Positions 18,101-62,347 are shown, counted from the stretch's first letter. The stretch is 64,000 bases of DNA from Verrucomicrobiota bacterium (GCA_046346705.1 JAXMHR010000012.1:109131-173130); one strand, 5' to 3'. The notes: a model not told the origin generated them from the letters alone. A program made the numbers and translations.

Positions 18101-19568
18101 GCGAATGACTGTTTCGGCTCGAACCCTGTTCCTGAGAAATCAGGCAGGAGGGGGGACGTCACTTGTGAACCGGGGAGTCCTCGTGTTTGAGGGGGACTCC
18201 GCGATTGAAGTGAGTTTTCCTCCGTCGGGTGTGACACCGCCCCTGATCAACGAGGGAACGCTTCAGAAGACCGGTGCCGGGACATCCGTGCTGGACACTC
18301 CGCTTTCGGGGCCGGGGGACATCATTGTCTCATCAGGTTCACTTCGATTCAACGGTGGCGCGGAGATTGTGGGGGCTGTCACGCTGGAGGCGGAGACCGC
18401 GATGCAATTGGGGCGCGGCACATTGGTCGTGAATTCCGGAAGTGTTATTTCCGGAGACGGGGTGCTCCAGGTTGACTCCGGGAATATGATTTTTTCCGGC
18501 AACCAGACCGTTTCTCGATTTACCCAGAATGGGGGCGATGTGACCGGTTCAGGAAATTTGGTGGTGACTCGGGGGTTAAGGTGGGCGAATGGTCGTCAGA
18601 TGGGTGCCTTTGTCACAGAGTTGGCGGAAACGGCGGCCTCAAGCATCGAAGGCGGAGGCATAAAGCAGTTGGTTTCCGGCCGAAGGTTGATCAATCGCGG
18701 AACTCTCGGCATTAGCGGAAACTGGGTTTATCTGGATAACGACTCCGCCGGGGGGGCGGGCATTGAAAACTTCGGAACCATCCGTTTCGATCAGGCCGCA
18801 GGAATACATCAAACCTCATCCAACGCGGGGAATCCCGTTGTATTCAACAATCAGGGCACCATCGAAGTGATGGGAACTTCGAGCGATGGAACGCGTTGGC
18901 GCCCGCCGTTCAACAGCTCCGGCACCGTTCGAGTTCATGGGGGTCAGGTCATTCTGGAGCGCGATTCCGTACAATCCGGCGCCCTCTCCGTCACAAACGG
19001 GGCCGCCTATGTGTTTTTCACGGGAAATCACTCATTCCCAGCAGGCAGTTCCCTCAGTGGCAGTGGGGATTTTGTCACCTACTACGGGAACGTGACTGTG
19101 GAGCCGCGCATGAACTGGACGGGGCGGATTCGCACCTTTGGAGGGACGACGAGCTTTGCCACCGATCAGACGTTTTCAGAGTTCATTCAGGGACAGGAGG
19201 TCGGGCTCAGCGTGGTCCGGTGTGCTGGAACCATCCTGATCACCAATTCGTACGCGTGGAACGGGGGTATTCTGTCGGGTCCCGGCCGGTTCGAGATTGG
19301 CGAGAAGGTCCCAGTGGTCTGGGGTGGGGGAAATAAGACACTTACTGGAGACGTTACTCTGGTGAATCGTTCCACTCTGACGCTCGGGGGGGCACCGGGA
19401 CCTGGCGGGAGACGGGAATGGGAGTTCGGGGTTCGAGAATCGAGGCACCGTGATCATGCCCGCAGGAGAGTCGATTCCGTACGCCGATCGCTACGGTGCG
19501 CAACCCATGGTCATTTCCAATTTGGGCCGTTGGGTGAAACAGGGAACGGGTGCGGATTCCTACGTTGA
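3141..19568 (+). CDS. Giant mosaic cell-surface/adhesin-like protein (5,475-codon ORF). The true gene probably continues in the +1 frame to 20355 after a G7 run at 19386-19392
   Basis: Uninterrupted ORF with GGAG 7 nt upstream of ATG 3141 and an N-terminal hydrophobic anchor (LLRWVLLAFIAGV). Recognisable modules: at least 13 CarboxypepD_reg-like units and SbsA-type Ig units (~9.7-11.6 kb). Two discoidin/F5-8-type-C-like units follow (IDGNRSGNWADGS, IDGNPSTFSHTD; ~11.9-12.7 kb). Next come a PA14-like unit (GDYNFTLNSDDGSRLSLDG; ~13.0-13.4 kb) and thrombospondin-type-3-like Asp repeats (DADGISDRDDPDVDGDGLD..DTDGDGAVD; ~13.62-13.79 kb). There are three LamG-like units (MDEVRIWS, LDDLRVWG, IDDVALWN) and cadherin/VCBS-like units (NDRDPDGDTL). 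Beta-helix passenger-type repeats run from ~17.67 kb. The last ~60 codons look like out-of-frame read-through. Confidence 0.9.
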   Translation: MSTLISILPGRTVCRSGLWFRVFRLLRWVLLAFIAGVKISIPMHGSDVLTTLEYRIAGTGLQVSPPAVSVPKGIAGSVLVTLVGGEAAGGQTNGTYVEAFLRGPGIPEPRRIVSPVNQPLLFPPLNLVGDYQLDSIRLVDGTTGDTLMEGSPSIVPVRVFDDILVSRVTSRPLTYEEIQEKGIFIDESNFRVVEFEAAFVLDGKTIPVTFPVVSPKFTDSVELIPAAELEEKLARAAALNQQIASTTALPPEFEVSQLNIQVQGINFQVVDPGEDEPLGLRVPPIPALMVIPGNIGYLNQFFSVQIFTENGAPRGSGLSVYNIQATLKLPPGPDQIPAADYTHPGDDPLRFARVGPDKLIQPVQQIVQPGSDGKTGTPDDSPRLQPGESGQAEFLVEGLQEGLHVMDLDLVADMDGLAAGPVQVRGKAAGSVLVRNPRFSMAFSHPRTVRVGEPYEASVTLLNTGITPANLVQITLNKNSISGARLEDETRQTVELGTLLPGESKTATFRMRSLRTGAVSFSNLTTSDDSVVGRFRLSMGVDERGVALSPDSLAMPDQVNSLPEGLLFAANRVLGQALSVATAGQLPPGILRVGRSIITRRVLDLAEAGQRLSYGDPPKRVFTDLLRDWQGGREASAGFDQILRETDAGREWRDALFAVIESSDGFTASARLADRAADLAGLGQEFALASADSGQLRLQFGEDLASVERSTRPFALVYSGTNGSWANGLLETNGVVIWTFTNAPASAEIGVLLVGTNGIARQFRWNLSHPPGDATYRFAFGDPASGLKVDLGSDGTQDSSIAATVLEVRELLPSVLAVEQDLYVLAGRPGSPCIGPEYRNYGTVVAVVFSKPMTQQMAGDPVSYSVDGDNGANSVQVQPGGRVAYLNLRKGISGIRPRTLTLSGVADVRGNALPTAILPIRSVERGTSVPFTGGVAIRGRALKGDGTPAVGIPVTLTMYDQAFGPNSCEPWTRRVSQVLTDSGGNFDFDFVMSGIPYSISATDTSGLSQEALTLIAGNTAEGQVERERILQLATSAATRDTLLGLFASGSIPEAIAKVEGLDRALVRDFVAENSPREGQTVPMALRFRGRATVVGRVVAEDGVTPVARPAVNLFPDSGSRELGRGIFADADGRFVFYGVPLGVYTVSVETSDHRTRTVAGLLSTPGEVATLTVALPSTITPQGNLRGTVFEADGVTPHANARVFIGRYGGNQVTDVVRIVEADSDGNWRADTLPAGKWDIVAITFDGRRKALRLGYSVIADATLVANLTLESTTQLLGRVQFEDGRPAANALVAGGLTLVRTDATGNFTLEGVPVGNRVISAGVERNPDAGIDFPRLGSAAVQVVPGANNYVVVKLRAVGRIYGKVIDLKGAGIGGVRVAIPVEGGFFWTDADSQGNYVFEGLSLGNYTLSAPANTTAPQLDTASLNESIRSGNEEEILTAFEEAVRVFVGADDPLINGSQLNFRPITWGFTGANLKFDGESVQANIRMLHEGTVRGKVLNHQGVPIGARVRLTGLGPARNGDPKITIRGERDSDPATGEFIFPGELLTGPWSVQAASPFYPSVIQVNGFTTEIDPNVKDVVLQFPPIRDTNGRLAGRVLKSDGTPAGEGIRVKINFSADYEIRTGTNGFFDTQIAVPAGGYRAEALDEATGLRGEAYVTVAAGRTNLVDVPLLTRNSSVSVTVLRGNGLPASGAQVDLEQGTFPRDARVTVFADANGRAVFGGLWEGRYAVSAQYVESSTRVYSRGGASVGPDETASVSLRLGATGSITGQFVKLDRITPVEAAQVSIGNLGFASTDGQGRFRFDGVPLGTYSLITSDPVTGAFARGIAAVSGADQVVDVLLVEGARGEVNGYVIDSYGAKFSPGATVRISYSDGLTPSVTITTGPDGRFSFPGSPVGGFSLVATDLPKSQGGRGTSGSVSGALDAASLVASVNIQLQPLGILGVNVVRSDGTTPATNVTVRLDAAQRDTDDRGGVSFEDLFLGTHGITAVSRAEGERRNGVGVSALISVAGTNPPVTLRLPGVGTVSGIVVGSDGVTPVNGAEVVISFQDSLFAGESVTAVTGGDGRFSFADVPVGGYRLVASSISLAGSVSGTIAGAGETDSTTVRLGDSGVILGRLVRSDGATGVGGVDVLVTYASQSANPGRAFVRSDGDGRFRLDNIPVGRFQLEVAAPSFGGLIRTGGLLASNQQQLDLGALRFDENFPEVVSMTPADTSLGVPTTAEIVLEFSEAMDASTLDPRGIFVRVAATGERVATNLELVETNGVARLVRIVPARALVSEQLYEVIALAGDLLNATGGVIGSGPRDLVGRPLTASFVGRFITADNDPPVLLSVFPTPAMIQVDPRAVPRLSFNESLRPTGFSFHLSGPAGEVAGSAAVGVDGRVLSFVPADLLKPNAIYTLTVSNVFDLAGNRAAAEPFIVAFSTLDTIGPTLGALRIADGRVPAAGATIPVEALLAVQEPGVSVRFSQDFNALGTDTNAPFRANVVLPRTGTTTVRAIATDVFGNDGPLAELVVTVVPNQPPTLRFSRVSPTEGPAPSGSFIAVDVEGVDDSGISELKAIVAGLGTGDLARTNATKLRVQGFVSAAAGPGTEVKIFAEAKDELGQSSGQQVFTLPIRDGTAPSVAILGPTNNTRINPAEPLELLVQVSDNFTNATVRLALNGAWTTNLSLSLPLISGEAASGRFLVTLAEVAPVGGILNARVTATDDAGNESSVTAVYRVLDSTIPVVQNFFPAAGETNAALWPLVVATFSEELDTNSVTAATFTVSDAGTPVPGRFSFRQTNQVVQWESLAPLVPGREYAVSLGAGITDTNANSIVPYTSTFTVSSFGITSPTNGGRVVEGQRLIVRAGGGNPAAVRMVNYTTQFGSAVGTDAHFTAELLVPSLSAISGSQFTVSATAKLAGKNRARDAFVRASSEGFGGSVSRIIDGNRSGNWADGSVAHTGNGNELHPWFELDLGQVTSFQQTALYFRTDSSPEQSSVAILVSEQPFVASDFSGEDLPAVYSNGAVELFRVTNGFLQGSVVETRGAICRYVRVVHLGRGFLSLAEIELRDGPQMALKPAAISSSSQYAGTPDQRAIDGNPSTFSHTDLDLHGFLELDLGEVTPVSSVDITWRRDCCQSRNRVAVLLADTPFVATDFQSADLPATYSNGAVEIYRTLAPYDQGTTSILPTTSGRYLRVVQLGRDYLSIAEIEVEKASVSGNLPPVTVEVLSRALDSDGDGVSNGDEIDRGSNPFQPDRIPVIDAPEVIELVQRVVRRVPVSARDEDGNLRSLEIAELTGDGAPSPGAVAEFWNVGSGIGSLSAVPFQSPPTWTTNLTTTEFPYGTEPWFPGGQVDRFAARIRGDLQISQQGDYNFTLNSDDGSRLSLDGAVVIDYDGEHGASERSATVSLAAGSHALELLYFENGGGAQFIASWQGPGFARRPFQASDFLQFGTLRFAGTDSKMLSSATDVARLDGEMELSIFTTNSVKIQLVARDRDGLIATRRVDVVVLGDLDADGISDRDDPDVDGDGLDSAAEIAAGTDPRNPDTDGDGAVDSVDRNPVRMNQIPIAGSGGAFRFDGVDDVLVAGSPEPLRQTGDQTIEFWIWPETTTRVQTIIAKSYAGEGAIALLDNGRLRYHYGNLGFDSGSLNANYQFADTGGSLVRRVWTHVALVRDLAAGKLRWYLNGELSSETSVSLSPAVAGSQRLTLGNGWAGGFVGEMDEVRIWSTARTGDEIRSLWKSRVTGGESGLAAAWSFEGVSGGVSRDHSPNHLPLTIGDSLFPASRPLAVESDVFPRDLLEVDGEAGSDLTVTLLGQDADKEPLRAIIIELPDRGTLYQTTDGSSRGSAITSVPTVVTDPQRRVIFAAPAGSSGLMSFRYAVSDTQDQSFPSTGRILVRPLNGAPEAVADKVAVFQDTPAVLGQLLANDRDPDGDTLRIHPLTQPSHGSLSQNGLGQWVYTPNAGYTGTDSFLYEIADALSWNRERDYRPGTVNLSTVGNPGLDQFGFPSWRLEYLQGGGFGDPAPWYRQNGGLLLWDSDWYGGGGYWAMQDNLGAIVWGQGLSHNLTGGSWFESIPAVSWISPVSGNVDVLGELELLWSSGGNSAETYPVDIALVVRRRSDGEFIPILTNTVVKPTPSLNTQESVRLPVGITNLSLTVGDEVRVTLRGRAPFAPMSLNLNDRLEFVLSAPKRSAVVTLDVGANAVPVAQAHTPTSALRFAGNRDYLMLGGPAAQFPPGDFTVEFWMRSTNGVNRGTVFSYAVPGQDNEFMIYDCRSINLFLRGTGVETGVGAVSGTWRHVAVSRSVSDGLTRVYLDGVLASEVILRAGDGVREGGYWIAGQDQDNLAGGFDEREAFDGELDDLRVWGVVRSSGEIAEGRFVRLAGNEPGLIASWNFDQVNNGESPNQVAGGFPAVLGSADQAPSPVPGFAPFDVAFATDEETPVAVTLAGTDADGDPLTRIVTSLPEHGTLFQTSDGSNPTTPLGGNRSRRFDGVNDIITIAENPSGDLSASPAWTVSAWIRPRSAGNTYPVIYSEGHWALSLGLQQGTGRLDSWVNNNNQAVSDRAVTFGEWQHVALTSDGTSRVFYINGQPAGSGNAAAVVPNASGAAIGGTISELTGTRNRFDGDIDDVALWNRALTPAELAVLAVAPLKGSESGLIAWWPLDEISGNAVADATGRGSDGVAGGGNPASDGAWLPEFSLNTSPAFAATLPRATHPGGKLIYVPDQEWSGLDVFEYRVNDGKVDSTIASLFVRTRTVNDPPTAVADVVSAISGLPEYMSGILSNDFDVEGAKVSLLDYTNPSHGALAKGEGGVLIYTAEVGFAGTDSFTYRISDGVGASVPATVTIHVATPGQFRWINVAGGDWSVASNWSGNRVPSADDDVFITEPGTYTVNLDVDATVRRLILGGGGTGQQTLSIGSRTLTVLGDSFVQDRGELVQSGGQIITDGAHWSVSGKLRWTGGTIAGLGTTEFLPGTDVQVGAPGIDVTATTGRQFLNRGRMTVSARTLFLRNQAGGGTSLVNRGVLVFEGDSAIEVSFPPSGVTPPLINEGTLQKTGAGTSVLDTPLSGPGDIIVSSGSLRFNGGAEIVGAVTLEAETAMQLGRGTLVVNSGSVISGDGVLQVDSGNMIFSGNQTVSRFTQNGGDVTGSGNLVVTRGLRWANGRQMGAFVTELAETAASSIEGGGIKQLVSGRRLINRGTLGISGNWVYLDNDSAGGAGIENFGTIRFDQAAGIHQTSSNAGNPVVFNNQGTIEVMGTSSDGTRWRPPFNSSGTVRVHGGQVILERDSVQSGALSVTNGAAYVFFTGNHSFPAGSSLSGSGDFVTYYGNVTVEPRMNWTGRIRTFGGTTSFATDQTFSEFIQGQEVGLSVVRCAGTILITNSYAWNGGILSGPGRFEIGEKVPVVWGGGNKTLTGDVTLVNRSTLTLGGAPGPGGRREWEFGVRESRHRDHARRRVDSVRRSLRCATHGHFQFGPLGETGNGCGFLR
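5940..9690 (+). repeat. Tandem array of at least 13 carboxypeptidase-regulatory-like beta-sandwich modules inside the giant CDS (protein-level repeats)
   Basis: Recurring ~90-aa pattern G(R/K)V...DG.P...A.V......(D/T).(D/N)G.F.F..(V/L)P.G.Y.(L/V). Examples: GRVVAEDGVTPV..ADADGRFVFYGVPLGVYTVSV; GIVVGSDGVTPV..GGDGRFSFADVPVGGYRLVA; GRLVRSDGATGV..DGDGRFRLDNIPVGRFQLEV. Confidence 0.7.
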
Positions 19569-52699: not shown

Positions 52700-53325
52700 G
52701 AAGAAACGCATGAACCTTGAAGAGGAAATTCAGCGACCCCAGACCGCAGGGAGATGATCCGCGCCCGTGTCATAGCAATACCTTCCATCGCGAAGCGTCT
52801 TGGACTGCGGTAGTCCCCGCTTTCCGACGTGACGGGACGCGCTCCGGAGTCACTGGACCCTATTCCCACGGACGCCACCCGAGTCCCTCGTGGAAGGACG
52901 GTGGAACCTGGGGGGAAGGTCAGTGGGCCTGGCACCTTCTCCATTGCACCTCGCGACTCAAGGGCGGCCGGAACCCGAGTCGGGCGCTTGGACCAACTCA
53001 AGCCTTCGTCCTCAATGGTCCATGAAGGACGTCCCTGGTAGAGGAAGATAAGCGCACACAAAGGCCTGGTTCTGGGTGGACGGCCCCACTCGCTCCGCCG
53101 CGAGATGGGAGTCGAGGCCTTGCACCTCATCCGCACCCCCATCTCGCGGGGATGCCGGCGGCCATTCCAGACGATGAACCGCCGGATCCAATCCACATAA
53201 GCCTCCTCGGTGCGCAGGGAAAGCTGCCGGAAGCGGATCACTTCCCGACATTGATCCAGGAACCGGAGCTTCGGATTGGGGATGTAGCGTTCCAACGGTC
53301 TCTGGGGTGCGGAGCGCCGCTCCAT
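52700..53325 (-). pseudogene. Decayed, truncated integron-type tyrosine recombinase (IntI-like N-terminal SAM-like domain plus start of catalytic domain)
   Basis: MERRSAPQRPLERYIPNPKLRFLDQCREVIRFRQLSLRTEEAYVDWIRRFIVWNGRRHPREMG matches by eye the IntI1 N-terminus ([42 protein letters not shown]). The next segment (EVQGLDSHLAAERVGPSTQNQA) lies in another frame. The frame then returns (LCALIFLYQG..WSKRPTRVPAAL). Similarity fades after ~200 aa and the catalytic RHRY core is not recoverable. Confidence 0.65.
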
Positions 53326-53769
53326 CCGACCCCGGCCGGACCTGGGTGGGATCCTGCCCACCAGCGACGACCGACCTTCCCCATCCGCTTCGGCATTCAT
53401 CCCCGAACTCTATCCCGACCTTGGTCTCCACCGGCCATCCGAAACGCCTCCCGAGAAATGAGGAGCGGAGGCGGATTCGCGACGCGCAGCGTCGAGTTGG
53501 GCGGAACTTCTTCGATCTCAAATCGGTGAAAACCGTTCTCTTGCAGCGAATGGGAGATCCTGTTGGACGGCGGGGTTCCGAGTTGGACCGAAGAAGGCGC
53601 TTCCCGTCAGACCCGCCCACCCCTCCGGACTCAAGTTAGGTGGATGATGCGTCGCTCAAGTGCCCAATAATCCCCTCTTTCGCATAGACATAGCGAGCGT
53701 ATTAGGCTTCGCTCTACTGAGTTAGGCGGATCCTGCTTCCGTCCAATAATAGTTCGCCAGAAGGATGCC

Positions 53770-54561
53770 ATGCCACGTAGAAGTCGATGGAGTCAAAAAT
53801 CGTTTGAGAAGGGAGTTCAAGAGATTGAGCTCTTCTCATGGGACTATTTCGGTGACTACATCTACGACAGGTTGCTGGACTTCAAGACCTACGTCTTTCG
53901 AGGCCATCGACGGTCCGATTGGAAGCTTGAGTCGACGCTAGACAGGGAACTTAGGGGGACGCTTCCAAATTTGCGCCAATCGCGCATGCAGGCCCACCTT
54001 GAAACCTTCAAGCACGCCGCGCGGGGCAGGCGCGGTCAGAACCCACCACGGCTGGACACCGAGAATGATTGGTGGGCACTTGGTCAGCATTACGGTCTTT
54101 ACACCCCACTCCTGGACTGGACCACGTCGCCATACGTTGCCGCCTTCTTTGCATTTGAAAAGACCAAGCACGACGATTCCCACCGCCGCGCGATCTGGTG
54201 CCTCGCGCAGAAGAGCATCGCAGATCGTTCCACCGAAATCGCGTCCCAGCACAGCGGGAATGATCGCCCCCCGATCGTAGAGTTCATCCGTCCGTTCTCA
54301 GATGAAAACTCACGCCTCGTCAATCAGGGCGGTCTGTTTACTCGTAGTCCATTGGGCGTCGATCTTGAGACGTGGGTAAAGCAGCAGTTTCCAAATGAGA
54401 CCAAGAGTTGCCTCCTGATCAAGATCACTGCTCCATCTCATAGTCGTCACAAATGCCTTCAAGAGCTGAATCGCATGAATATTAACTACCTGACTTTGTT
54501 CCCAGACCTTTACGGAGCTTCGTTGCACTGTAATACAGCTCACAAGATCCAAAACTACTAA
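53770..54561 (+). CDS. FRG domain-containing protein
   Basis: Motifs: YVFRGHRRSDWKLESTLDR (FRG motif), WWALGQHYGLYTPLLDWTTSPYVAAFFAF, NSRLVNQGGLFT. AGGA lies 4 nt upstream of the ATG. GC is visibly lower than in flanking genes. Confidence 0.85.
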   Translation: MPRRSRWSQKSFEKGVQEIELFSWDYFGDYIYDRLLDFKTYVFRGHRRSDWKLESTLDRELRGTLPNLRQSRMQAHLETFKHAARGRRGQNPPRLDTENDWWALGQHYGLYTPLLDWTTSPYVAAFFAFEKTKHDDSHRRAIWCLAQKSIADRSTEIASQHSGNDRPPIVEFIRPFSDENSRLVNQGGLFTRSPLGVDLETWVKQQFPNETKSCLLIKITAPSHSRHKCLQELNRMNINYLTLFPDLYGASLHCNTAHKIQNY

Positions 54562-54563
54562 CT

Positions 54564-54665
54564 GTGCGAACCAGACGGTGCAGCGAACGGGAGCCAGCCG
54601 ATTCGCTTGGAGACAAATCCAACGTCATCGGCGGCTGGCTTCCGTCGCTGACCTTTTCGTTGGGC
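54564..54665 (+). other. attC-like imperfect palindrome 5 nt after the FRG stop, ending in a perfect GTTRRRY core (GTTGGGC 54659-54665)
   Basis: The left arm is TGCAGCGAACGGGAGCCAGCCGAT (54581-54602). The right arm is ATCGGCGGCTGGCTTCCGTCGCTGA (54627-54651). They pair with bulged G and A on the left arm and a 3-nt bulge on the right. The outer boxes are tGCGAAC (54565-71) and GTTGGGC. It could alternatively act as a terminator (TTTT follows the stem). Confidence 0.5.
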
Positions 54666-54681
54666 ATCAACACACAGGCCA

Positions 54682-54954
54682 ATGAATCACTTGCCCGCAA
54701 ACCAAGGCGACATCGGTTGGCGAAGGTTCTTCATCTGCGTGGAGGTGGGGTTGGCCTTGTCGTGGTTCGGGGCCGAGGGTTGCAAGGGGAGGATCTCGGA
54801 CATGTGCTTCGCTGTTATGGGGATGACCACGGTTGTCCTTCTATTCGTGCTCCCCTGGTTCTGGGCCAGACTTCGCCACGTGGCGCTATTGGGCTGGCTC
54901 ATGGGCGTTGGCTCAGTCTTCCTCTTGGCACTTCGGTCCCCTGGTCACCGATGA
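54682..54954 (+). CDS. Small (90-aa) predicted three-helix membrane protein
   Basis: Three hydrophobic stretches are present: FFICVEVGLALSWFGA, MGMTTVVLLFVLPWFWA, VALLGWLMGVGSVFLLAL. Its stop overlaps the ATG of the next gene (ATGA at 54951-54954). It starts 23 nt after the GTTGGGC core. I recognise no homology. Confidence 0.45.
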   Translation: MNHLPANQGDIGWRRFFICVEVGLALSWFGAEGCKGRISDMCFAVMGMTTVVLLFVLPWFWARLRHVALLGWLMGVGSVFLLALRSPGHR

Positions 54955-55607
54955 ATACGAATTTGCCCAACAAAGCGGCTGCACTCGAACGCCTCGATGC
55001 ACCCTGGTTCCAGTCGAGTATCATGGGCGCGGCGTCGGTGAGCCGAGACGTTGGGCAAATTATGAATGTCCCCGAATTTATCATCGCATTCCTTCAAGCT
55101 GTAGCATGGCCCGCAGTTGTGGTGACACTCGCCCTAACTTTCCGCAGCGACTTGGCGGCGCTGCTCGGCCGAATCAGCACGTTCAAACACAAAGAGACGG
55201 AACTTCAGTTCGGGCGCGAACTCGCAGAGGCAGCCGATGAGGTGAGGAGAGAGTCGAGCGCTGGAGCCGAGTATCTATCAACTCCGGAAGCCAGGAAGAT
55301 TCTCGCGGTCCTAGAGATTGATCCTAAGGCCGCGATTATCGCCGCGTGGGTTGAGTTCGAATCCGCTGCCCGCGCTGCTTTGCCGCAGAAGCTAGGTTCG
55401 GAGAGACCGTCTCCGATTCCGCATGTTATCGACGCACTCTTGGCGAGCGGACGATTGCACAAATCCGACGCTGAGTTTCTGGGTGTATTGCGCAGGCTTC
55501 GGAATGCCGTTCTGCACTCCGCTGAGGCACCTGTAGATCAAGAAATGGGTTACAAGGCGGTGACCGCGTTACTAGTGATGGCGTGGGAACTGCGTCATCC
55601 GGAATGA
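54951..55607 (+). CDS. Membrane-anchored protein with a C-terminal HEPN-like (DUF4145-like, R-N-x3-H) motif
   Basis: The N-terminal TM helix is FIIAFLQAVAWPAVVVTLALTF. The C-terminal helical domain carries LGVLRRLRNAVLHS (Rx4H with Asn after Arg, the HEPN signature). ATG 54951 was chosen over the long ORF start at 54564, which would read through the hairpin. Confidence 0.55.
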   Translation: MNTNLPNKAAALERLDAPWFQSSIMGAASVSRDVGQIMNVPEFIIAFLQAVAWPAVVVTLALTFRSDLAALLGRISTFKHKETELQFGRELAEAADEVRRESSAGAEYLSTPEARKILAVLEIDPKAAIIAAWVEFESAARAALPQKLGSERPSPIPHVIDALLASGRLHKSDAEFLGVLRRLRNAVLHSAEAPVDQEMGYKAVTALLVMAWELRHPE

Positions 55608-55613
55608 CAAACG

Positions 55614-55705
55614 GCCCAACATGCACTGCAGCGAACCCGGCGGGGGCTTCGTGGTTGCAATCGTTGTGTCTCGTGCGCCGGGTCGCTGAGCTTGGGTCGT
55701 TCGGC
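55614..55705 (+). other. Second attC-like imperfect palindrome 7 nt after the HEPN-gene stop, starting with a perfect RYYYAAC inverse core (GCCCAAC 55614-55620)
   Basis: The arms are TGCAGCGAACCCGGCG (55628-55642) and CGCCGGGTCGCTGA (55676-55689). They have the same bulged G and A as the first site. GCCCAAC is the exact reverse complement of GTTGGGC at 54659-54665. The candidate 3' core is GTTCGGC (55699-55705). Confidence 0.5.
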
Positions 55706-55830
55706 GTGTTGACCATGAGCACCCAACCTCGATCACACCTCAGCAAAAGACAACGTGAGCGTTGCATGATCGAAGCAGCATGGGCGGCTTTTGCTCACGC
55801 GTATCCGGCACGTAGTGGAAAGGCAATGGG

Positions 55831-56090
55831 GTCAGATCTGTATCTTTTACAATTGACTGCTTTTTGCGACGGACTCGAGCGGGGAATGCATGGACTGCGG
55901 GCCTTGGTGCACCGGCGTTCCGGAACCTTGGATCCCGCGATTCGGAAAGGCTCGCGCCAGCCGTGTTCGGCCCTTCTGAAGTCGTCTGCGGTGACAAAAG
56001 TTTCCGGTCATTCGCTGGATTCAGGATTGTTCATCGCGTTTGAAGGATGCCGTGACTGTTGACTTCGTATGTCGCCGGAATCGAAGGCAG
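55831..56090 (+). repeat. Direct repeat copy 1 (260 bp), ~97% identical to 61397..61655
   Basis: Manual alignment to copy 2 gives about 6 substitutions and one 1-nt indel (CTTTTTGCG vs CTTTTGCG). The indel breaks any shared reading frame, so the repeat is most likely non-coding. Confidence 0.9.
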
Positions 56091-56093
56091 GAG

Positions 56094-56149
56094 CAACGGG
56101 GTCGGATCTGTATCTTTGGGGGGGGCAACGGGGTCTGATCTGTATCTTT
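56094..56149 (+). repeat. Two tandem partial copies of the repeat 5' end (CAACGGGGTCNGATCTGTATCTTT) separated by a G8 run
   Basis: The copies are CAACGGGGTCGGATCTGTATCTTT (56094-56117), GGGGGGGG (56118-56125) and CAACGGGGTCTGATCTGTATCTTT (56126-56149). Compare CAATGGGGTCAGATCTGTATCTTT at 55824-55847 and ..ACAGATCTGTATCTTT at 61398-61413. Confidence 0.85.
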
Positions 56150-56412
56150 GACTTTCTGGAGGGACAACTGTGATAGCGAGTAAGAGTTCGCGTGCGCCAT
56201 GGGTCCGGATGGATCGCGTTCTTAGGACGCTTGTACTCCTGGGGTTCGGTGCTCAAAGAGCCCCTTGGATCAGTTCGGGAATCTCGGTGGCCACCGGTAG
56301 GAGTTTCTGGACTGCAGCCTGTCGCCGGGGGGGGCTTTGCATTAAACTTTAGTCGCGTTTCGGTTGAGGTCCGGAGTCCACGAAAGCCCTGAACGATGCC
56401 GCTGCAAACCGG

Positions 56413-57957
56413 TTATGCGGTCAATCGCTCGCGGAGTGGCGCCCGATTGAGGTCGCGCTTCACGCTCTCGTCGTTCACCACCGCTTCAAGCTGGGCGAAG
56501 GTGTCCGCGGCCTGGGTCGATTCGGTTTTCAACCGGTCGCGCATCTTGGACCAGTAATTGTTCAGCGCCTTGGTGACGCTGTCCTGCATGTCCTGCGGCA
56601 GATAGCGAATCCTCTCGAACACCTGACTCGAAGCCGTGGAGAAGATATCATTGACCTCGATGGTTCCCTTTCGCCACTCGCGCAATCGGTCGTCCATGCC
56701 GATGTCCATCAAACCCTGCGTCCTATCCACCCAGACGTCAGTGAAGATGAGCTCATTTTCGACGGACTTGCTTACCGAGCCGATGAAGCGTCCCTGGTTC
56801 GCTTGGACAAACATTCCAAACGTGTTGGCCATCCGCTCGTAGCGGGCCTTGAACGCCTCCTTCACGGCTTCTGCCCACTCGCGGGCATCGGCCTTTTGCC
56901 CATCCGTGGGCAGATCATTGGCCCAGCGATCCAGTGAAGCCTCCGCCTTTTCGTACATCTCGCGGGCACGGTCGAGTCCGTTGACCTTGAGAAAGTCGTC
57001 GACGTCGCGCCGGGTCTGCGACACGGAAACGAGGATTGCTCCCTGGTTTGGCACCAGGCGTTGCAGGTCGTCCAGCTGGGCGCGGTATTCGGAGCTCAGA
57101 TTGGTCAAATCCTTGTAGAGCGCGTTGACCGCGGTGATGAAGCCCTCGAATTCCGGTCCGATGGCTTTCTGGATGGTTTCGGAGACGGCCATGCCTGGAT
57201 CGCGGCAGAGTTCGGGATTATATGCAGCGAGGTCCTTTGCGGAGACTCCGAGCTCCTTGCCCTTGGCGAAGTAATCCTTGCCCAGCAGCGAGATCTTCGG
57301 GACCAGCTTCGCCAGCTGCTCGGGAAGGCCGGCCTCGATGAGCAGGTAGACCACGGCATCGTTTGCCAGGTCGGGCACTTTCATAAAGTAGTCGAGAAGA
57401 CGCTTCAGGCTGTCCGAGTACCGCAGGTAGGCGTCAGTGCCCCTGGAAAGCCCCTTTTTCATGATGTCCGACATCTTCCGGCAGGCTTCGGCCTCGAGGC
57501 CCTCGATGCGTTTCGACTCCTCGCTCATCGTGCCCCATTTCTTCGTCAGGTCCGCGACGAGCTGATTCAGTTTCACCTCGAGAGCCGCAAAATCGTCGCG
57601 CATTCCCTCAATATTGAGGTTCACAAGTCCCTGCAGGAACTTCATCTCCTGGGTGACCTCATGCTCGCGCCACCAGTTGACCTCATCACCAGGATAGACC
57701 AGGCCGGTGGTTACTTTTGAGAACGGCAGGACCCAACGATCAAGGACCAGTTGCATTTTGTCTTCGACCGCCCGCGCCTTGGGTTCCAGGCCCTGATCGA
57801 TCAGCGGTGGAAGGATGTCCGCAAGTGCGGAGGCGCGCGCCTGATAGAGGGGGCTCATGCGAAGCGGCACCTCGACGCGCTCGCCCGGCTTGAACGTCTC
57901 CTTGTCCTTTTCGAAACTGGCACGCAGTTCCTTTTCGCGATGGCTTAGATCGGGCAT
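56413..57957 (-). CDS. Hypothetical all-alpha protein (514 aa), third gene of an unknown three-gene module
   Basis: Start ATG 57957 (MPDLSHREKELRAS) lies 10 nt after the upstream stop. Composition is helical and charged throughout. I recognise no TM segment, signal peptide, Walker A motif or nuclease motif. Confidence 0.7.
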   Translation of the reverse strand: MPDLSHREKELRASFEKDKETFKPGERVEVPLRMSPLYQARASALADILPPLIDQGLEPKARAVEDKMQLVLDRWVLPFSKVTTGLVYPGDEVNWWREHEVTQEMKFLQGLVNLNIEGMRDDFAALEVKLNQLVADLTKKWGTMSEESKRIEGLEAEACRKMSDIMKKGLSRGTDAYLRYSDSLKRLLDYFMKVPDLANDAVVYLLIEAGLPEQLAKLVPKISLLGKDYFAKGKELGVSAKDLAAYNPELCRDPGMAVSETIQKAIGPEFEGFITAVNALYKDLTNLSSEYRAQLDDLQRLVPNQGAILVSVSQTRRDVDDFLKVNGLDRAREMYEKAEASLDRWANDLPTDGQKADAREWAEAVKEAFKARYERMANTFGMFVQANQGRFIGSVSKSVENELIFTDVWVDRTQGLMDIGMDDRLREWRKGTIEVNDIFSTASSQVFERIRYLPQDMQDSVTKALNNYWSKMRDRLKTESTQAADTFAQLEAVVNDESVKRDLNRAPLRERLTA

Positions 57958-57967
57958 GGGATTCGCC

Positions 57968-59599
57968 TTAGATTGGCTGGACCGTGGCGATCCGCCAGGG
58001 ACCTCCGTTGATGCGCTGCAGAGTCCACTTCGGGCGGACGGTGGTGTCGCAAAAGGTCCGTCGTTCCCCCTCAAATTCGCCGACGTGTTCGAGCCAGACC
58101 TCCACCTCCTCGATCACGCTCGCTCCTTTGAACCGCGTGGCATCCACGAGCGTCTTGGGATCGTCCACCCAGGCGACCTGGGCGTCGAGGACGCGGCCCA
58201 TGATGGATCGTCGTGCCTCCTCAAACATCGATTCATCCGGCGAGGGCGCGCACGGATGCACCACGAGTTTTTCCGTTCCATCCTCCGCACTGAGACGTTC
58301 GACCTCCCACGAAACGTGGAGCGCCCGCCATAGTGCGAGATCGTCGTTCTTCACCGCGCCGACCAATGCCAACATGACCTCGGCGGGAGATGCATCCGGC
58401 GGCGGCAGCTTTGGGGATTCATCGACGAGGCCCTCCTCGCCGGCGAAGGGCACCGTGGCATCCGATGGTTGCGTCAAGTCGACGTACAGGGCGCCGCCGA
58501 CCAGTGCCGCCACTGGCTCCGCAACCAGGCCGTACTCGGCGCGTTCCCCCACGACAATAAGCCGCGATTCCCCAGTGATGCGGGCGACGAATTCCCACTG
58601 AGGCTGGAGATTGGGGTCGACCAGCTTGGCGTATCGACGTTGAGCCTTGAGCATCGCCCTCGCTCGCGCGGATTCCGCATCGAGGAAATACCAACCGCTG
58701 CCGCCCGCGGCAAACCAGCCGTGGCCGGCATCCGAGATCCAATCGCTGTTTCTGAGCGGCGGCAACACGACGAGTTTTCCGGTGACTGTTCGGACGTCGT
58801 CGCGCACCGGATTGACCGCGGGAAAAGCGGGAACGATTTCGCTTCGGCGACTTTCCTGAAACGCCGACCACGCGGTTTGCGCCTTGGTGCGGACCTCGGC
58901 GGCCAATTCTTCGCCTCGTCTTCGGAAATCGAGCGCGTTTGGGGGAAGCAACACCCGGCGCCCGTCACACACGGCCACCGCGGCATCGAAGTCGGCACCC
59001 AGCGCGCTCGCCCAAGCGCCTGGATACGCTTTTCGCGCGAAGGCGACCTGGGCGCCGTGGGTCTCGCGGAGATTCCGTGCCTCGAAGCGGCTCACGAATG
59101 AGGAGGTCTGGCGCCGGTCGGCGTCCAGAATCCGCGAAAGCGCCGCCACCATGGTTTCGTCATACCATCCCCCCCAACACGCGGAGAAGCCGTCGGAAGT
59201 CATCGTATTCGGCCCGCCCTCCCCAAACACGACGGCGTTGTTTTCGTCGCGGTAGTAACGCTTCTCCGCAAGCCGGGCCGAAATGGTCAACTCGATCCAT
59301 CCATTCAAGGGCGCCCGTCGGCGGACTTTCAGGGTGATGGGGGATCCTGCAGTCAATCCCAGCCGCGCGAATCCCTGGGATTCCGAGTACAGGCCAATCG
59401 AATCCGCTTCCCGACGCTTCGCGGCCTCGAGGTCCCCGGGTGGCACGATCGGCGCACCATTTACCATCAAGATGCGATCACCGATCTCGAGTCCACTTCC
59501 GCGAAATGGGCTATCCCAGGCGATCCATGTGACCCGAACGCAAGGCGGCGACTGGCCAAGAGCCGAAGCCGTAACGAGCCCGCTGGTCAGATCGGCCAT
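57968..59599 (-). CDS. Hypothetical protein with an N-terminal PDZ-like domain (543 aa), second gene of the module
   Basis: The PDZ-like segment is FRGSGLEIGDRILMVNGAPIVPPGD..GSPITLKVRR. The remainder is unrecognised; the C-terminal ~120 aa are alpha+beta-like (..WTLQRINGGPWRIATVQPI). The start is ATG 59599 (MADLTSG) or ATG 59665. Confidence 0.65.
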   Translation of the reverse strand: MADLTSGLVTASALGQSPPCVRVTWIAWDSPFRGSGLEIGDRILMVNGAPIVPPGDLEAAKRREADSIGLYSESQGFARLGLTAGSPITLKVRRRAPLNGWIELTISARLAEKRYYRDENNAVVFGEGGPNTMTSDGFSACWGGWYDETMVAALSRILDADRRQTSSFVSRFEARNLRETHGAQVAFARKAYPGAWASALGADFDAAVAVCDGRRVLLPPNALDFRRRGEELAAEVRTKAQTAWSAFQESRRSEIVPAFPAVNPVRDDVRTVTGKLVVLPPLRNSDWISDAGHGWFAAGGSGWYFLDAESARARAMLKAQRRYAKLVDPNLQPQWEFVARITGESRLIVVGERAEYGLVAEPVAALVGGALYVDLTQPSDATVPFAGEEGLVDESPKLPPPDASPAEVMLALVGAVKNDDLALWRALHVSWEVERLSAEDGTEKLVVHPCAPSPDESMFEEARRSIMGRVLDAQVAWVDDPKTLVDATRFKGASVIEEVEVWLEHVGEFEGERRTFCDTTVRPKWTLQRINGGPWRIATVQPI

Positions 59600-59908
59600 A
59601 AACTTCGGGCAACGATTGAATTGTTCACGGCGTCCAATCAACAGGAGTTGTCCCGATAATTTCAATCGCAGAGGTTACAGGCCGGACGACTGAGGCTGTG
59701 GCAAGAATCGGGGTTTCGAATGGGAGGCTTCCGACGTCCGAGGCTCGCCACGGGCACCCGGTACGGTCAAGCGGTTGGGCTCGACTCGAACGGATTGCAC
59801 TCGGTGGGACCCACGGGGGCCGACCTTTACGTCTGGAAACTGGAGCTTGCCTTCGTTTTTCGACGCGGACACCGCTGCTTTTGAGAATCGACTCCGGAAT
59901 TGAAGGTC

Positions 59909-61318
59909 TTACCCCGGGCCGATCCCGGGAGCGTCCGTCTGCGTTGAAGTCTCTTTCAATCGAAGGGAAGCAGTCTCTCGAACCTCGGAGTCCACCCAGG
60001 GAGCCGCGGATAGCTCCTTGAGTCGCGGGGGAACGCCCAAGGCGCCGAGGGACACCACTTCCGCTCCCGCGAGTTGCACGTCGTCCTCGCAGTCCCAAAG
60101 ACATTCCTCGGAGAACCGATCTTGAAAGCTCTCCGGGTGGGTGCTCCGCATGGCCGGAACGAGATACCAGCGGGCGCAGGAATGTAGGGCCGTCTCGAAG
60201 GCGAGGCCCAATTCAGGGACGGGACCGACGCCTTCGAGTCGCTCCATCGCCGTTGCGAGATCGCAAATCCGGTAGGACGTCTCAGGTTCATTTCCGAGGG
60301 AATTCTGGAGCGCAGATCGAAGAAGTGAAAGGTCCTCCGGAGCCGCATGGACCTTCATGAGGGCATCCGCCATGTCGCTGAGGTTGCTGTCGTCGTGATC
60401 AAACCATTCCCGGGCGAGAGGCAGGACTGTCTGAGCGGGGAGGGCGACCATCGCGTCCTGCAACGCGCATCGGAGAGGGCGCCAAAGGTCGGCGTTGGCG
60501 CGGTAGATGTCGCGCAACCAGCCAAACAGGGAAGGGTCGGCAATTTTGGCCAACGCCCAGAGCGCGCCCACGGCTCTTTCCCGGTGTTCCAGGACGACCT
60601 GGCTTTGCAGGAATCCCAGATCGTCCGGACTAACCGCCGCCTCAATAAAGCGCCGGAGTCCAAAGATCCGTTTCCAATTGTCTGCGAAGTCCAATAGTCC
60701 AGGAAGATCGAGGGAGGTGAACTGGAACCGAAACGCATCCGCCTGTTCCCGGCGAGTAGCCCTGTGATTCGGACTGCTTACAATCTCGCGAATCCTCGCG
60801 CTGTGGTTGCCCAGGACCTGCCATTCCGGTTTGTCGAGAAATGCGTACTGTAAAGCCTCCTGGAGAGCGATGGCGGTTGGGAATCGGGATTCGATAATTC
60901 CGGCCAGTCGTACCGTCACCTCCGGGTCGGGAAACGACACGAGGGACTCCACGTGGTGCGTCCAGTCCTGATACGTGCGGCAATCTTCGAGGAGAATCTC
61001 GGCAGCCTCCCTGGATCCCCGGCGGCTGAGCGCCCGCAACGTCTTCCAAGTCAGTCCATGTTCCTCGCAGCCGTCGTCCTCCCGAATCCGGTTCGCGAGC
61101 GGTTCGAGGGGAAGCCCGACCCGGAGGGCCAGTTCCGCGTAATAGTCGCTGCGATTCTCGCACTGGTAGTCTATGCGAGGGTCCTGAAGGATGCAGTGGG
61201 TCAGTAGCCGATGCGCCACCGGTTGTGGTTCCCGGATGAGCCGGAGAAATCCGAGTCCGCGGCCGCGCTGGAGTTGTCCCAGCAGGGAGTCCGGTGGTGC
61301 ATGAATTGTATCGGACAT
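59909..61318 (-). CDS. Hypothetical helical-repeat (HEAT/ARM-like) protein (469 aa), first gene of the module
   Basis: The sequence has helix-turn-helix repeat character throughout (e.g. AAEILLEDCRTYQDW, RAVGALWALAKIADPSLFGWLRDIY, LSLLRSALQNSLGNE). I recognise no catalytic motif. Confidence 0.65.
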   Translation of the reverse strand: MSDTIHAPPDSLLGQLQRGRGLGFLRLIREPQPVAHRLLTHCILQDPRIDYQCENRSDYYAELALRVGLPLEPLANRIREDDGCEEHGLTWKTLRALSRRGSREAAEILLEDCRTYQDWTHHVESLVSFPDPEVTVRLAGIIESRFPTAIALQEALQYAFLDKPEWQVLGNHSARIREIVSSPNHRATRREQADAFRFQFTSLDLPGLLDFADNWKRIFGLRRFIEAAVSPDDLGFLQSQVVLEHRERAVGALWALAKIADPSLFGWLRDIYRANADLWRPLRCALQDAMVALPAQTVLPLAREWFDHDDSNLSDMADALMKVHAAPEDLSLLRSALQNSLGNEPETSYRICDLATAMERLEGVGPVPELGLAFETALHSCARWYLVPAMRSTHPESFQDRFSEECLWDCEDDVQLAGAEVVSLGALGVPPRLKELSAAPWVDSEVRETASLRLKETSTQTDAPGIGPG

Positions 61319-61396
61319 GGCAGCGTTGCGGATCCGTGCTGATCGCGGCGGATTCGCCTTGGCGGGTCAAGCAGACAAGCCGGGGGGCAACTTCAT

Positions 61397-61655
61397 GACA
61401 GATCTGTATCTTTTACAATTGACTGCTTTTGCGACGGTCTCGAGCGGGGAATGCGTGGACTGCGGGCCTTGGTGCACCGGCGTTCCGGAACCTTGGATCC
61501 CGCGATTCGGAAAGGCTCGCGTCAGCCTTGTTCGGCCCTTCTGAAGTCGTCTGCGGTGACAAGAGTTTCCGGTCATTCGCTGGATTCAGGATTGTTCATC
61601 GCGTTTGAAGGATGCCGTGACTGTTGACTTCGTATGTCGCCGGAATCGAAGGCAG
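61397..61655 (+). repeat. Direct repeat copy 2 (259 bp), directly upstream of the Phd/VapC pair
   Basis: See copy 1. It is preceded by GGGGGGCAAC (61382-61391), the same G-run+CAAC prefix seen at 56118-56129. Confidence 0.9.
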
Positions 61656-61722
61656 CCGGCGCTGTCCTGTTCGACCCTTGGGTGCTATTGACCTCGTGCG
61701 GAAAGTGACCATTATTCTGGTC

Positions 61723-61965
61723 ATGCAAGCTTCCGTTGCGCAGGCGAAAAGCCAATTGGCCGATTTGCTTCGGCGGGCCGAACGTGGCGAGGAGGTTGTG
61801 ATCGCCCGGCATGGATTACCCGTAGCGCGCTTGGTGGCCATTCGATCCTCTGGCCCGCCGCCTGTTTCTGCGACGCCCTTGGATCCAAAAGATTATGCGG
61901 GAATTGACCTGGATGAACCGGCATTCCCCTCATGGGAGAAAGGTGGCAATGCGAGCCTTGATTGA
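61723..61965 (+). CDS. Type II antitoxin, Phd/YefM family
   Basis: MQASVAQAKSQLADLLRRAERGEEVVIARHGLPVARLVAI is the canonical Phd/YefM N-terminal fold signature. The gene overlaps the toxin gene by 17 nt. Confidence 0.85.
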   Translation: MQASVAQAKSQLADLLRRAERGEEVVIARHGLPVARLVAIRSSGPPPVSATPLDPKDYAGIDLDEPAFPSWEKGGNASLD

Positions 61966-62347
61966 TTCCGGATTGTGGTGGCGGCGTTACCACGGATTGC
62001 CAATGGGCCGGCGGCTCGCCCGTTTCCTGGAACAGGAGGTCAGCGAGTTCTGGCTTTGTCCGGTCTCGGTTCAGGAGATGCTCTACAAGTGGCGGCATCG
62101 GAAGTTGCCGGCACCGGATCCTGCCGAATGGCTCGCGGAGGCCACGGAAGGTTATCGGGCGGCACCGGTCACCCTTGAAGCTGCCCGGGTGGCCGGGCTT
62201 TGGGAATGGGCGCATGGGGATCCCGTGGACCGCTTGCTCGCCGCGGTGGCGAACACCGAGGGTTTGACGCTGGTGCATACGGATCAGAGGCTTCGGTCAT
62301 TGTCTGGATTTCCCCAGCGATACTTTCCGAATATTGGAATGGTGTAG
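61949..62347 (+). CDS. vapC: Type II toxin, PIN-domain VapC family
   Basis: The N-terminal acidic motif is MRALIDSG. The C-terminal motif GDPVDRLLAAVANTEGLTLVHTDQRL is the DP.DR..IA.A....L.L.T.D PIN signature. Its position immediately after the Phd antitoxin also fits. Confidence 0.85.
   Translation: MRALIDSGLWWRRYHGLPMGRRLARFLEQEVSEFWLCPVSVQEMLYKWRHRKLPAPDPAEWLAEATEGYRAAPVTLEAARVAGLWEWAHGDPVDRLLAAVANTEGLTLVHTDQRLRSLSGFPQRYFPNIGMV

Follow-up and report, generated by a model that had tools for sequence, protein, structure and literature searches.

Two nearly identical direct copies of a noncoding segment of about 258 nt, here designated U, bracket a block of three genes (A, B, and C) in a 64,000-nt stretch of DNA from a Verrucomicrobiota bacterium (GCA_046346705.1, JAXMHR010000012.1:109131-173130); this whole stretch is referred to below as the window. 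A short motif, designated M, recurs at the junctions of the repeats, and the locus lies beside a decayed integron. The explanation that we favor, tentatively and with slightly less than even confidence, is that the arrangement is the scar of an ordinary rearrangement seeded at M, in which U was copied by recombination and the A-B-C block came to lie between the copies.

The direct repeats U1 and U2 and their junctions

The upstream copy, U1, occupies positions 55833 to 56090 (258 nt, plus strand), and the downstream copy, U2, occupies positions 61399 to 61655 (257 nt, plus strand), between gene A and a divergently oriented Phd/VapC toxin-antitoxin (TA) pair. An initial annotation of this DNA had described direct repeats of ~97% identity around three genes, and a MAFFT alignment, a repeat search, and blastn concur on the pair. 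U1 and U2 share 97.7% identity, differing by five substitutions and one 1-nt indel in a T-run; the longest identical run comprises the final 92 nt, and another spans 66 nt. The figure of about six substitutions given previously is right for the coordinates used at that time, which began 2 nt further left and add the mismatch between T at 55832 and A at 61398. Also as first described, U2 is directly upstream of Phd/VapC, ending 67 nt before the Phd ATG (61723), and U1 has no gene downstream of it on the plus strand. No third copy of U was identified in the window using blastn.

The duplication is not an assembly artifact, a possibility that had been left for checking. An ENA k141 contig from an independent assembly (L001) is 100% identical to window positions 54169 to 61521 and spans the left flank, U1 (phased over its full length), the tandem M copies that follow it, the whole gene block, and the first 123 nt of U2, with the copy-specific variants present. 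Further contigs span U2 into the TA genes, and Logan k31 contigs stop precisely 30 nt within each edge of the repeat, the pattern predicted for a true two-copy repeat. The strain is carried by samples SRR14234082-88, SRR12908308, ERZ27248705, and ERZ773281. Three Logan k31 contigs (L006, L008, and L010), which over positions 1 to 258 carry U joined to the TA genes, are mosaics of U1 and U2 variants and may reflect either gene conversion between U1 and U2 or an effect of assembly. As more than 31 nt separate the variant groups, which a k31 assembly therefore cannot phase, these mosaics were not counted as evidence for gene conversion or deletion.

M is a motif of ~30 nt (GGCAAnGGGGTCnGATCTGTATCTTTGAC; consensus, GGCAAnGGGGTCnGATCTGTAWCWTTGACATT). 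Four copies are present in the window, all direct on the plus strand and all within 55.8 to 61.4 kb, compared with a chance expectation for the M pattern of 0.06 matches per window. M1 (55819 to 55855; nhmmer E value, 2.3e-11) is canonical (GGCAATGGGGTCAGATCTGTATCTTT...), and U1 begins with its inner half. M2 (56089 to 56118; E value, 1.3e-8) follows directly after the end of U1 and is truncated on its inner side by M3 (56122 to 56159; E value, 2.8e-11), which is in tandem with M2 at a period of 32 nt and faces the 3' end of gene C. M4 (61386 to 61421; E value, 2e-4 for the inner part) is a variant found at the start of U2 and consists of an outer GGGGGGCAAC, as in M3, and an inner CAGATCTGTATCTTTT, as in M1, with the central GGGGT changed to TTCATGA. 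Three of the four U edges are therefore marked by M, namely, the start of U1, the end of U1 (by the tandem pair), and the start of U2, while the right edge of U2 has none. A profile built from 15 instances of M detected only M1 to M4 in the window (E values from 2e-11 to 2e-4) and no copy on the minus strand; a fifth candidate at 59807 to 59835 (69% match) was rejected because this profile does not detect it.

The base preceding GATCTG is A in M1, G in M2, and T in M3, and a weak dyad (GTCAnA-N8-TnTGAC) surrounds TCTGTATC. The sequences on either side of U1, GCAATGGGGT and GCAACGGGGT, both belong to M copies, and U2 has no flanking duplication. No population-level variation was seen at M3 or M4. 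Two models considered for M were dropped: for the Tn3-type inverted repeat, similarity is limited to GGGGTCTGA, and for the XerC/D dif site, it is limited to TGTAT. A string search of the literature for the M sequence returned only an unrelated virus paper.

The region upstream of the TA pair bears on the relative age of the copies. The pair consists of genes for a Phd/YefM-family antitoxin (80 aa; 61723 to 61965, plus strand) and a PIN-domain, VapC-type toxin (132 aa; 61949 to 62347, plus strand), both recognized by domain matches. In six related contexts homology begins at about window positions 61659 to 61710 and runs to the VapC stop codon, with different neighbors each time, and by this comparison the pair is a shuffled two-gene unit. 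U and M are absent from six of the seven related TA contexts (L050, L052, L053-56, L057, and L059). L058 (JGI 3300006417, Ga0069787_10333451), with 85% nucleotide identity over the TA genes, remains homologous as far as its contig reaches, a stretch that takes in the final ~70 nt of U2 (67% identity). Between L057 and L058, homology starts exactly at the right edge of U, making this edge a real junction. Given the U-like sequence upstream of the TA genes in L058, U2 was adjacent to the TA pair long before U1 and U2 diverged by 2.3%, which probably makes U2 the earlier copy and U1 the product of a recent duplication.

A promoter-like site (TTGACC-16 nt-CATTAT) with a palindrome (TGACCA..TGGTCA) is located at 61688 to 61715 on the plus strand, downstream of U2, and is conserved in relatives of the TA pair; the palindrome is the predicted operator of the TA unit and is outside U. 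The proposal that a TA leader had been duplicated holds to the extent that U-like sequence precedes the TA genes in L058, but it is not sustained by the other six contexts or by the position of the promoter-like site. L057 also carries, at positions 78 to 353, a small open reading frame (ORF) directly before Phd/VapC that is antitoxin-like by eye (MRTTLDLPDPLF...), which suggests TA-rich arrays in such genomes.

In the rearrangement that we favor, U would be a discrete noncoding segment of ~258 nt whose copies arose by recent direct duplication (2.3% divergence). The TA-proximal U2 would have been copied to a second site as U1 through ectopic homologous or template-copying recombination, starting in the inner half of M common to the copies (CAGATCTGTATCTTT...) and ending at an arbitrary point (GGCAG). 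The setting would be the variable DNA that directly follows the final attC-like site of the decayed integron. All of the scenarios that we constructed need M-U in more than one context and put M at the joints.

Several points weigh against this explanation. Both the direction of copying, from U2 to U1, and the recombination mechanism are drawn from the anatomy of the junctions alone, as neither an intermediate nor an empty site nor a deleted form was encountered. Copying of U1 from U2 also sits awkwardly with M1 being the more canonical of the pair M1 and M4, as either a prior M at the U1 site or a later change in M4 would be needed. In L058, homology takes in only the final ~70 nt of U (67% identity), and the two-copy count of U applies to the 64-kb window. 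Finally, M may be a transposon end, a recombinase site, or something else.

The genes between the copies are all on the minus strand. Gene C (56413 to 57957; 514 aa), which is also called in L001, has no Pfam, NCBIfam, or PDB match. Gene B (57968 to 59599; 543 aa) has a weak N-terminal PDZ-like match below the Pfam cutoff and no assigned family. Gene A (59909 to 61318; 469 aa) belongs to a HEAT-repeat-like family according to source names, and its closest homologs (66, 62, and 50% identity) stand alone, without B, C, M, or U; thus, the A-B-C block is not a conserved unit. This, together with the location of the block in a variable island, is compatible with Campbell-type homologous integration, whereby a circle carrying the A-B-C block and one U entered a resident U upstream of the TA pair. 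The geometry also fits, with near-identical direct repeats flanking the insert and a 92-nt identical tail, and the U2-TA adjacency is ancestral. We nevertheless consider this course of events quite unlikely. The donor must already have had U beside the block, so that a repeated U is still presupposed, neither a circular junction nor a module-less haplotype was seen, and contigs of several samples cross M2, M3, and M4 unbroken. The tandem arrangement of M2 and M3 is also left unexplained.

Segments flanked by direct repeats can be deleted by RecA-dependent recombination. U resembles the repeats of such segments in being 258 bp long, direct, and 97.7% identical, and deletion of the block by RecA-type recombination is plausible given the identical runs of 92 and 66 nt. 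The earlier statement that the block is excisable or deletable by homologous recombination is reasonable on these general grounds, but no deletion product or circle was observed here.

Motif M in other genomes and metagenomes

To establish where else M occurs, 185,579 species genomes were scanned, and a separate scan of metagenomes was performed; the genome containing the window was not among the matches. The genome scan identified two contigs (L016 and L022) of one Verrucomicrobiota metagenome-assembled genome (MAG) and a further MAG labeled Akkermansia sp. (L023). In each of these, M is present as an inverted pair, GGGGTCAGATCTGTATCTTTGACATTT ... AAATGTCAATGTTACAGATCTGACCCC, enclosing 75 to 210 nt, and the pairs share a terminal inverted repeat (TIR) of ~33 nt. 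L022 and L023 are orthologous, with a common interior, and their homology ends at the outer edge of M; the interior of L016 and the body of U are unrelated to theirs. No clear target site duplications (TSDs) were identified around the three pairs. From the metagenome scan, five solo M copies and one partial tandem (L027) were obtained. No U-like interior was found at the M matches in either scan with M-anchored patterns able to match M1.

Changes in the sequence adjoining M were found at several of these loci. L016 and L027 have the rluE-side flank and M in common and differ on the inner side of M. An rluE-like gene in L027 has upstream of it a 24-nt tandem duplication of M's outer part (GATCGGCAAAGGGGTCAGATCTGG, two copies; positions 1480 to 1545), and the orthologous site in L016 holds the inverted M pair. 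In L029, a gene segment has a 961-nt duplicate with 97% identity (12298 to 13289 versus 9725 to 10684), and M is located precisely where this duplicate begins. The duplicated segment is an internal part of a gene for a 1,812-aa RHS/YD-like protein, and its layout resembles an orphan toxin-module arrangement. In L039, an RHS-type C-terminal region and, downstream of it, a small gene are found just ahead of M. Based on these comparisons, M is a conserved dispersed repeat of Verrucomicrobiota sequences that is transposon-end-like and often located at synteny breaks.

Fragments of IS4- and IS701-family transposases were identified near M in L016, L030, and L042, with inconsistent geometry. No intact insertion sequence (IS) bounded by M was obtained, no transposase could be linked to M, and no attC-like sites were present near M in the M-bearing loci elsewhere. 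A viral match (L024/L044, from IMG/VR; positions 9460 to 9560 of L024) was set aside as coincidental, as it consists of four iteron-like GATCTGTATCAA repeats with a spacing of ~22 nt in AT-rich DNA. These repeats sit at the end of a winged-helix rep-like ORF.

Searches of viral, plasmid, and phage collections did not return the body of U (using blastn for plasmids and phages and exact-pattern scans with three U segments for viruses), and a sensitive blastn comparison of the U body and its flanks with ~40 fetched loci returned nothing. These results bear on whether U with its M end might be a small nonautonomous mobile element that inserted twice independently, the bracketing of three genes being incidental, which we regard as unlikely. 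U is short and noncoding, begins with a motif that elsewhere behaves as a transposon terminal repeat, and has a U-like counterpart in a second organism (L058); in addition, GCAA(T/C)GGGGT is present on either side of U1, resembling a 10-nt direct duplication of an M target. Set against these features are the lack of an inverted M at the other end, or of any minus-strand M in the window by the profile search, the lack of a flanking duplication at U2, the absence of the body from the collections and fetched loci and of any U-like interior at M matches, and the unrelated interiors of the M-bounded elements elsewhere. Classification of U as a MITE (miniature transposable element with inverted repeats) was rejected, as it has M at the left end only rather than a TIR at both ends. 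No transposase, as the flanking elements of a composite transposon would require, is encoded in U or nearby in the window.

The association of M with synteny breaks on either side in other genomes could also be accounted for if M were the site of an unidentified site-specific recombinase in Verrucomicrobiota that inserts, duplicates, and swaps segments at M, although this appears improbable. The M copies in the window are all direct and mark the boundaries of segments, M4 looks like the outer half of M3 joined to the inner half of M1, the base before GATCTG differs among M1, M2, and M3, and M has the dyad described above. By extension, U1, the 32-nt M2 unit, and the A-B-C block would be cassettes at M, analogous to yet distinct from integron cassettes, and this extension is given an equally low probability. 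However, no recombinase gene is present in the locus by Pfam and NCBIfam searches, breakpoints are not at a constant position relative to M, and M elsewhere occurs in inverted pairs, as at transposon ends. Furthermore, the right edge of U2 lacks M, the dyad is weak, and M3 and M4 displayed no variation at the population level.

The neighboring integron remnant and the character of U

The earlier suspicion that an integron is involved at this locus was borne out by an integrase remnant and attC-like sites upstream of the repeats. The remnant, located at 53012 to 53330 on the minus strand, is a degraded integron integrase comprising only the N-terminal SAM-like domain (~100 aa), with a frameshift near 53140; no catalytic domain was found. 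Its only matches are to integron integrases (PDB 2A3V, IntI4, E value of 8.5e-6; NCBIfam, E value of 2.9e-15; Pfam Phage_int_SAM_4), the NCBIfam match being far below the full-length cutoff.

Short cassettes on the plus strand are separated by at least three attC-like palindromes, which contain the boxes GCCCAAC and GTTGGGC and were called by hand and by folding and not with the IntegronFinder covariance model. The first cassette (53770 to 54561) encodes an FRG-domain protein matching the PADLOC candidate defense family PDC-S15 (E value, 6.5e-96) and is followed by an imperfect palindrome at 54560 to 54672 that ends in GTTGGGC (54659 to 54665; DNA fold z score, -4.0). The product of the next cassette is a 90-aa protein, and the palindrome between its ORF and that of the third cassette is at 54955 to 55062 (GCCCAAC at 54965 and GTTGGGC at 55050; z score, -3.6). 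The third cassette (55062 to 55607) encodes a 181-aa protein with a weak DUF4145 match. A weaker attC-like site follows at 55606 to 55712 (GCCCAAC at 55614 and GTTCGGC at 55699 to 55705), with z scores of -1.2 on the plus strand and -1.7 on the minus strand.

Contigs from two other samples (L013 and L014) both end at window position 55701, in the GTT of the third attC-like site (55699 to 55701), and L014 has AGG in place of CGG past this point. This suggests, on thin evidence, that the junction is followed by other DNA or cassettes in other strains. Between 55.7 and 62.5 kb, no additional attC-like structure was detected; thus, the repeats sit just past the recognizable attC array. The island is limited by an esterase gene and a POT-family transporter gene, and the locus is a variable block in a defense-type island containing the FRG/PDC-S15 and DUF4145-like cassettes and Phd/VapC. 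Elsewhere in the window, a single ORF of 5,475 aa extends from 3141 to 19568 on the plus strand.

With an integrase remnant and attC-like sites directly upstream, and with GTTCGGC common to U and the third attC-like site, the repeats could be taken as the attL and attR sites of an integrase-mediated insertion or as attC-type integron sites; the findings make either very improbable. An attC site was defined as an imperfect palindrome of ~55 to 140 nt that forms a hairpin and has the boxes RYYYAAC ... GTTRRRY. U was rejected as such a site, being 258 nt, or about twice the length of a long attC, having no hairpin, and carrying a GTTCGGC that violates GTTRRRY. RNA and DNA folding of U and the M-containing flanks gave no attC-like hairpin, and the z scores for U were +0.24 and +0.54 on both strands, no better than those of shuffled sequence. 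A sliding DNA fold detected no strong hairpin in the noncoding parts of 55.7 to 62.5 kb, and M on the minus strand remains unpaired when folded.

GTTCGGC is present at all three positions originally reported, but it occurs 16 times in the window (11 on the plus strand and 5 on the minus strand), and its presence in both copies and the attC-like site is therefore a chance match. No tRNA or tmRNA was found in the window using ARAGORN, and no recombinase or integrase domain was found in or beside the gene block (Pfam, NCBIfam, and PADLOC). No functional integrase is present, the sole integrase sequence being the frameshifted remnant ~2.4 kb away, and the attL/attR interpretation was abandoned. 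What survives of the suggestion of a conserved cassette boundary is that the locus adjoins a decayed integron array. The motif recurring at the junctions is M, which had gone unnoticed in the initial annotation, and not GTTCGGC.

The indel was originally thought to break the only long ORF across the repeat. This is so for an ORF of 159 aa, which is broken in U2, but a 59-aa ORF with a TTG start (55864 to 56043 and 61429 to 61608) is intact in both copies, where the U1/U2 differences comprise two synonymous and three nonsynonymous changes. The intact ORF is the one feature in favor of selection on both copies of U for an encoded small protein or structured RNA, an idea to which we give very little likelihood. 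The GC contents of the 59-aa ORF at the first, second, and third codon positions (GC1, GC2, and GC3) are 0.63, 0.62, and 0.53. All U ORFs have a GC2 of at least 0.55 and a GC3 of no more than 0.62, whereas nearby real genes have a GC2 of 0.37 to 0.52 and a GC3 that exceeds GC2 every time; none of the U ORFs has the coding pattern of the neighboring genes. No U ORF has a Pfam match, a protein search with the translated U frame returned nothing, and in the gene calls of the source assemblies no complete gene falls within U, where there is only a fragment at a contig edge in L010. No Rfam match was found within U at the gathering score or at E values up to 5, and these null results, with the near-zero fold z scores, speak against a structured RNA identity.

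Comparison with known systems

Among the closest parallels to the arrangement are gene blocks or integrons with a copy of one MITE on either side. An example is the Tn402-like integron of Acinetobacter johnsonii that carries a 439-bp MITE at each end (PMC3934969). The two cases are alike in having two near-identical short noncoding repeats around accessory genes in an integron context, a terminal motif that is transposon-end-like, and a block that is potentially movable or deletable. U differs in that the terminal motif is at one end, no TSD or cognate transposase was found, the interior occurs nowhere else apart from the partial homolog in L058, and extra tandem M copies are present.

The neighborhood also resembles decayed integrons and CALIN elements, the latter being clusters of attC sites without an integrase (IntegronFinder; PMC4889954 and PMC9024848). 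It contains an integrase remnant, at least three attC-like palindromes, and short cassettes, including a candidate defense gene, and the GTT junction at 55699 to 55701 coincides with contig ends in two other samples. In contrast, U1 and U2 are not attC sites and are beyond the last recognizable attC-like site.

Mobile insertion cassettes and MITEs derived from IS ends, which have the same terminal repeats and variable interiors, have been reviewed (PMC10969869). The M pairs of L016, L022, and L023 are similar in having a TIR of ~33 nt around unrelated interiors of 75 to 210 nt, and some M loci are similar in having IS4- or IS701-family transposase fragments nearby. They differ in that no intact M-ended IS and no target duplications were found, and the M copies in the window are direct, not inverted.

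For the annotation of this locus, what was suspected to be an integration site becomes an ordinary repeat-flanked variable block beside a decayed integron. M, the new result here, is a useful by-product of the analysis and is shared by several genomes and metagenomes of Verrucomicrobiota. Should M turn out to be no more than a dead MITE end, the finding would be routine; as a recombinase site or the terminus of a transposon family that is still active, it would help to explain the shuffling of accessory genes in a poorly studied phylum.

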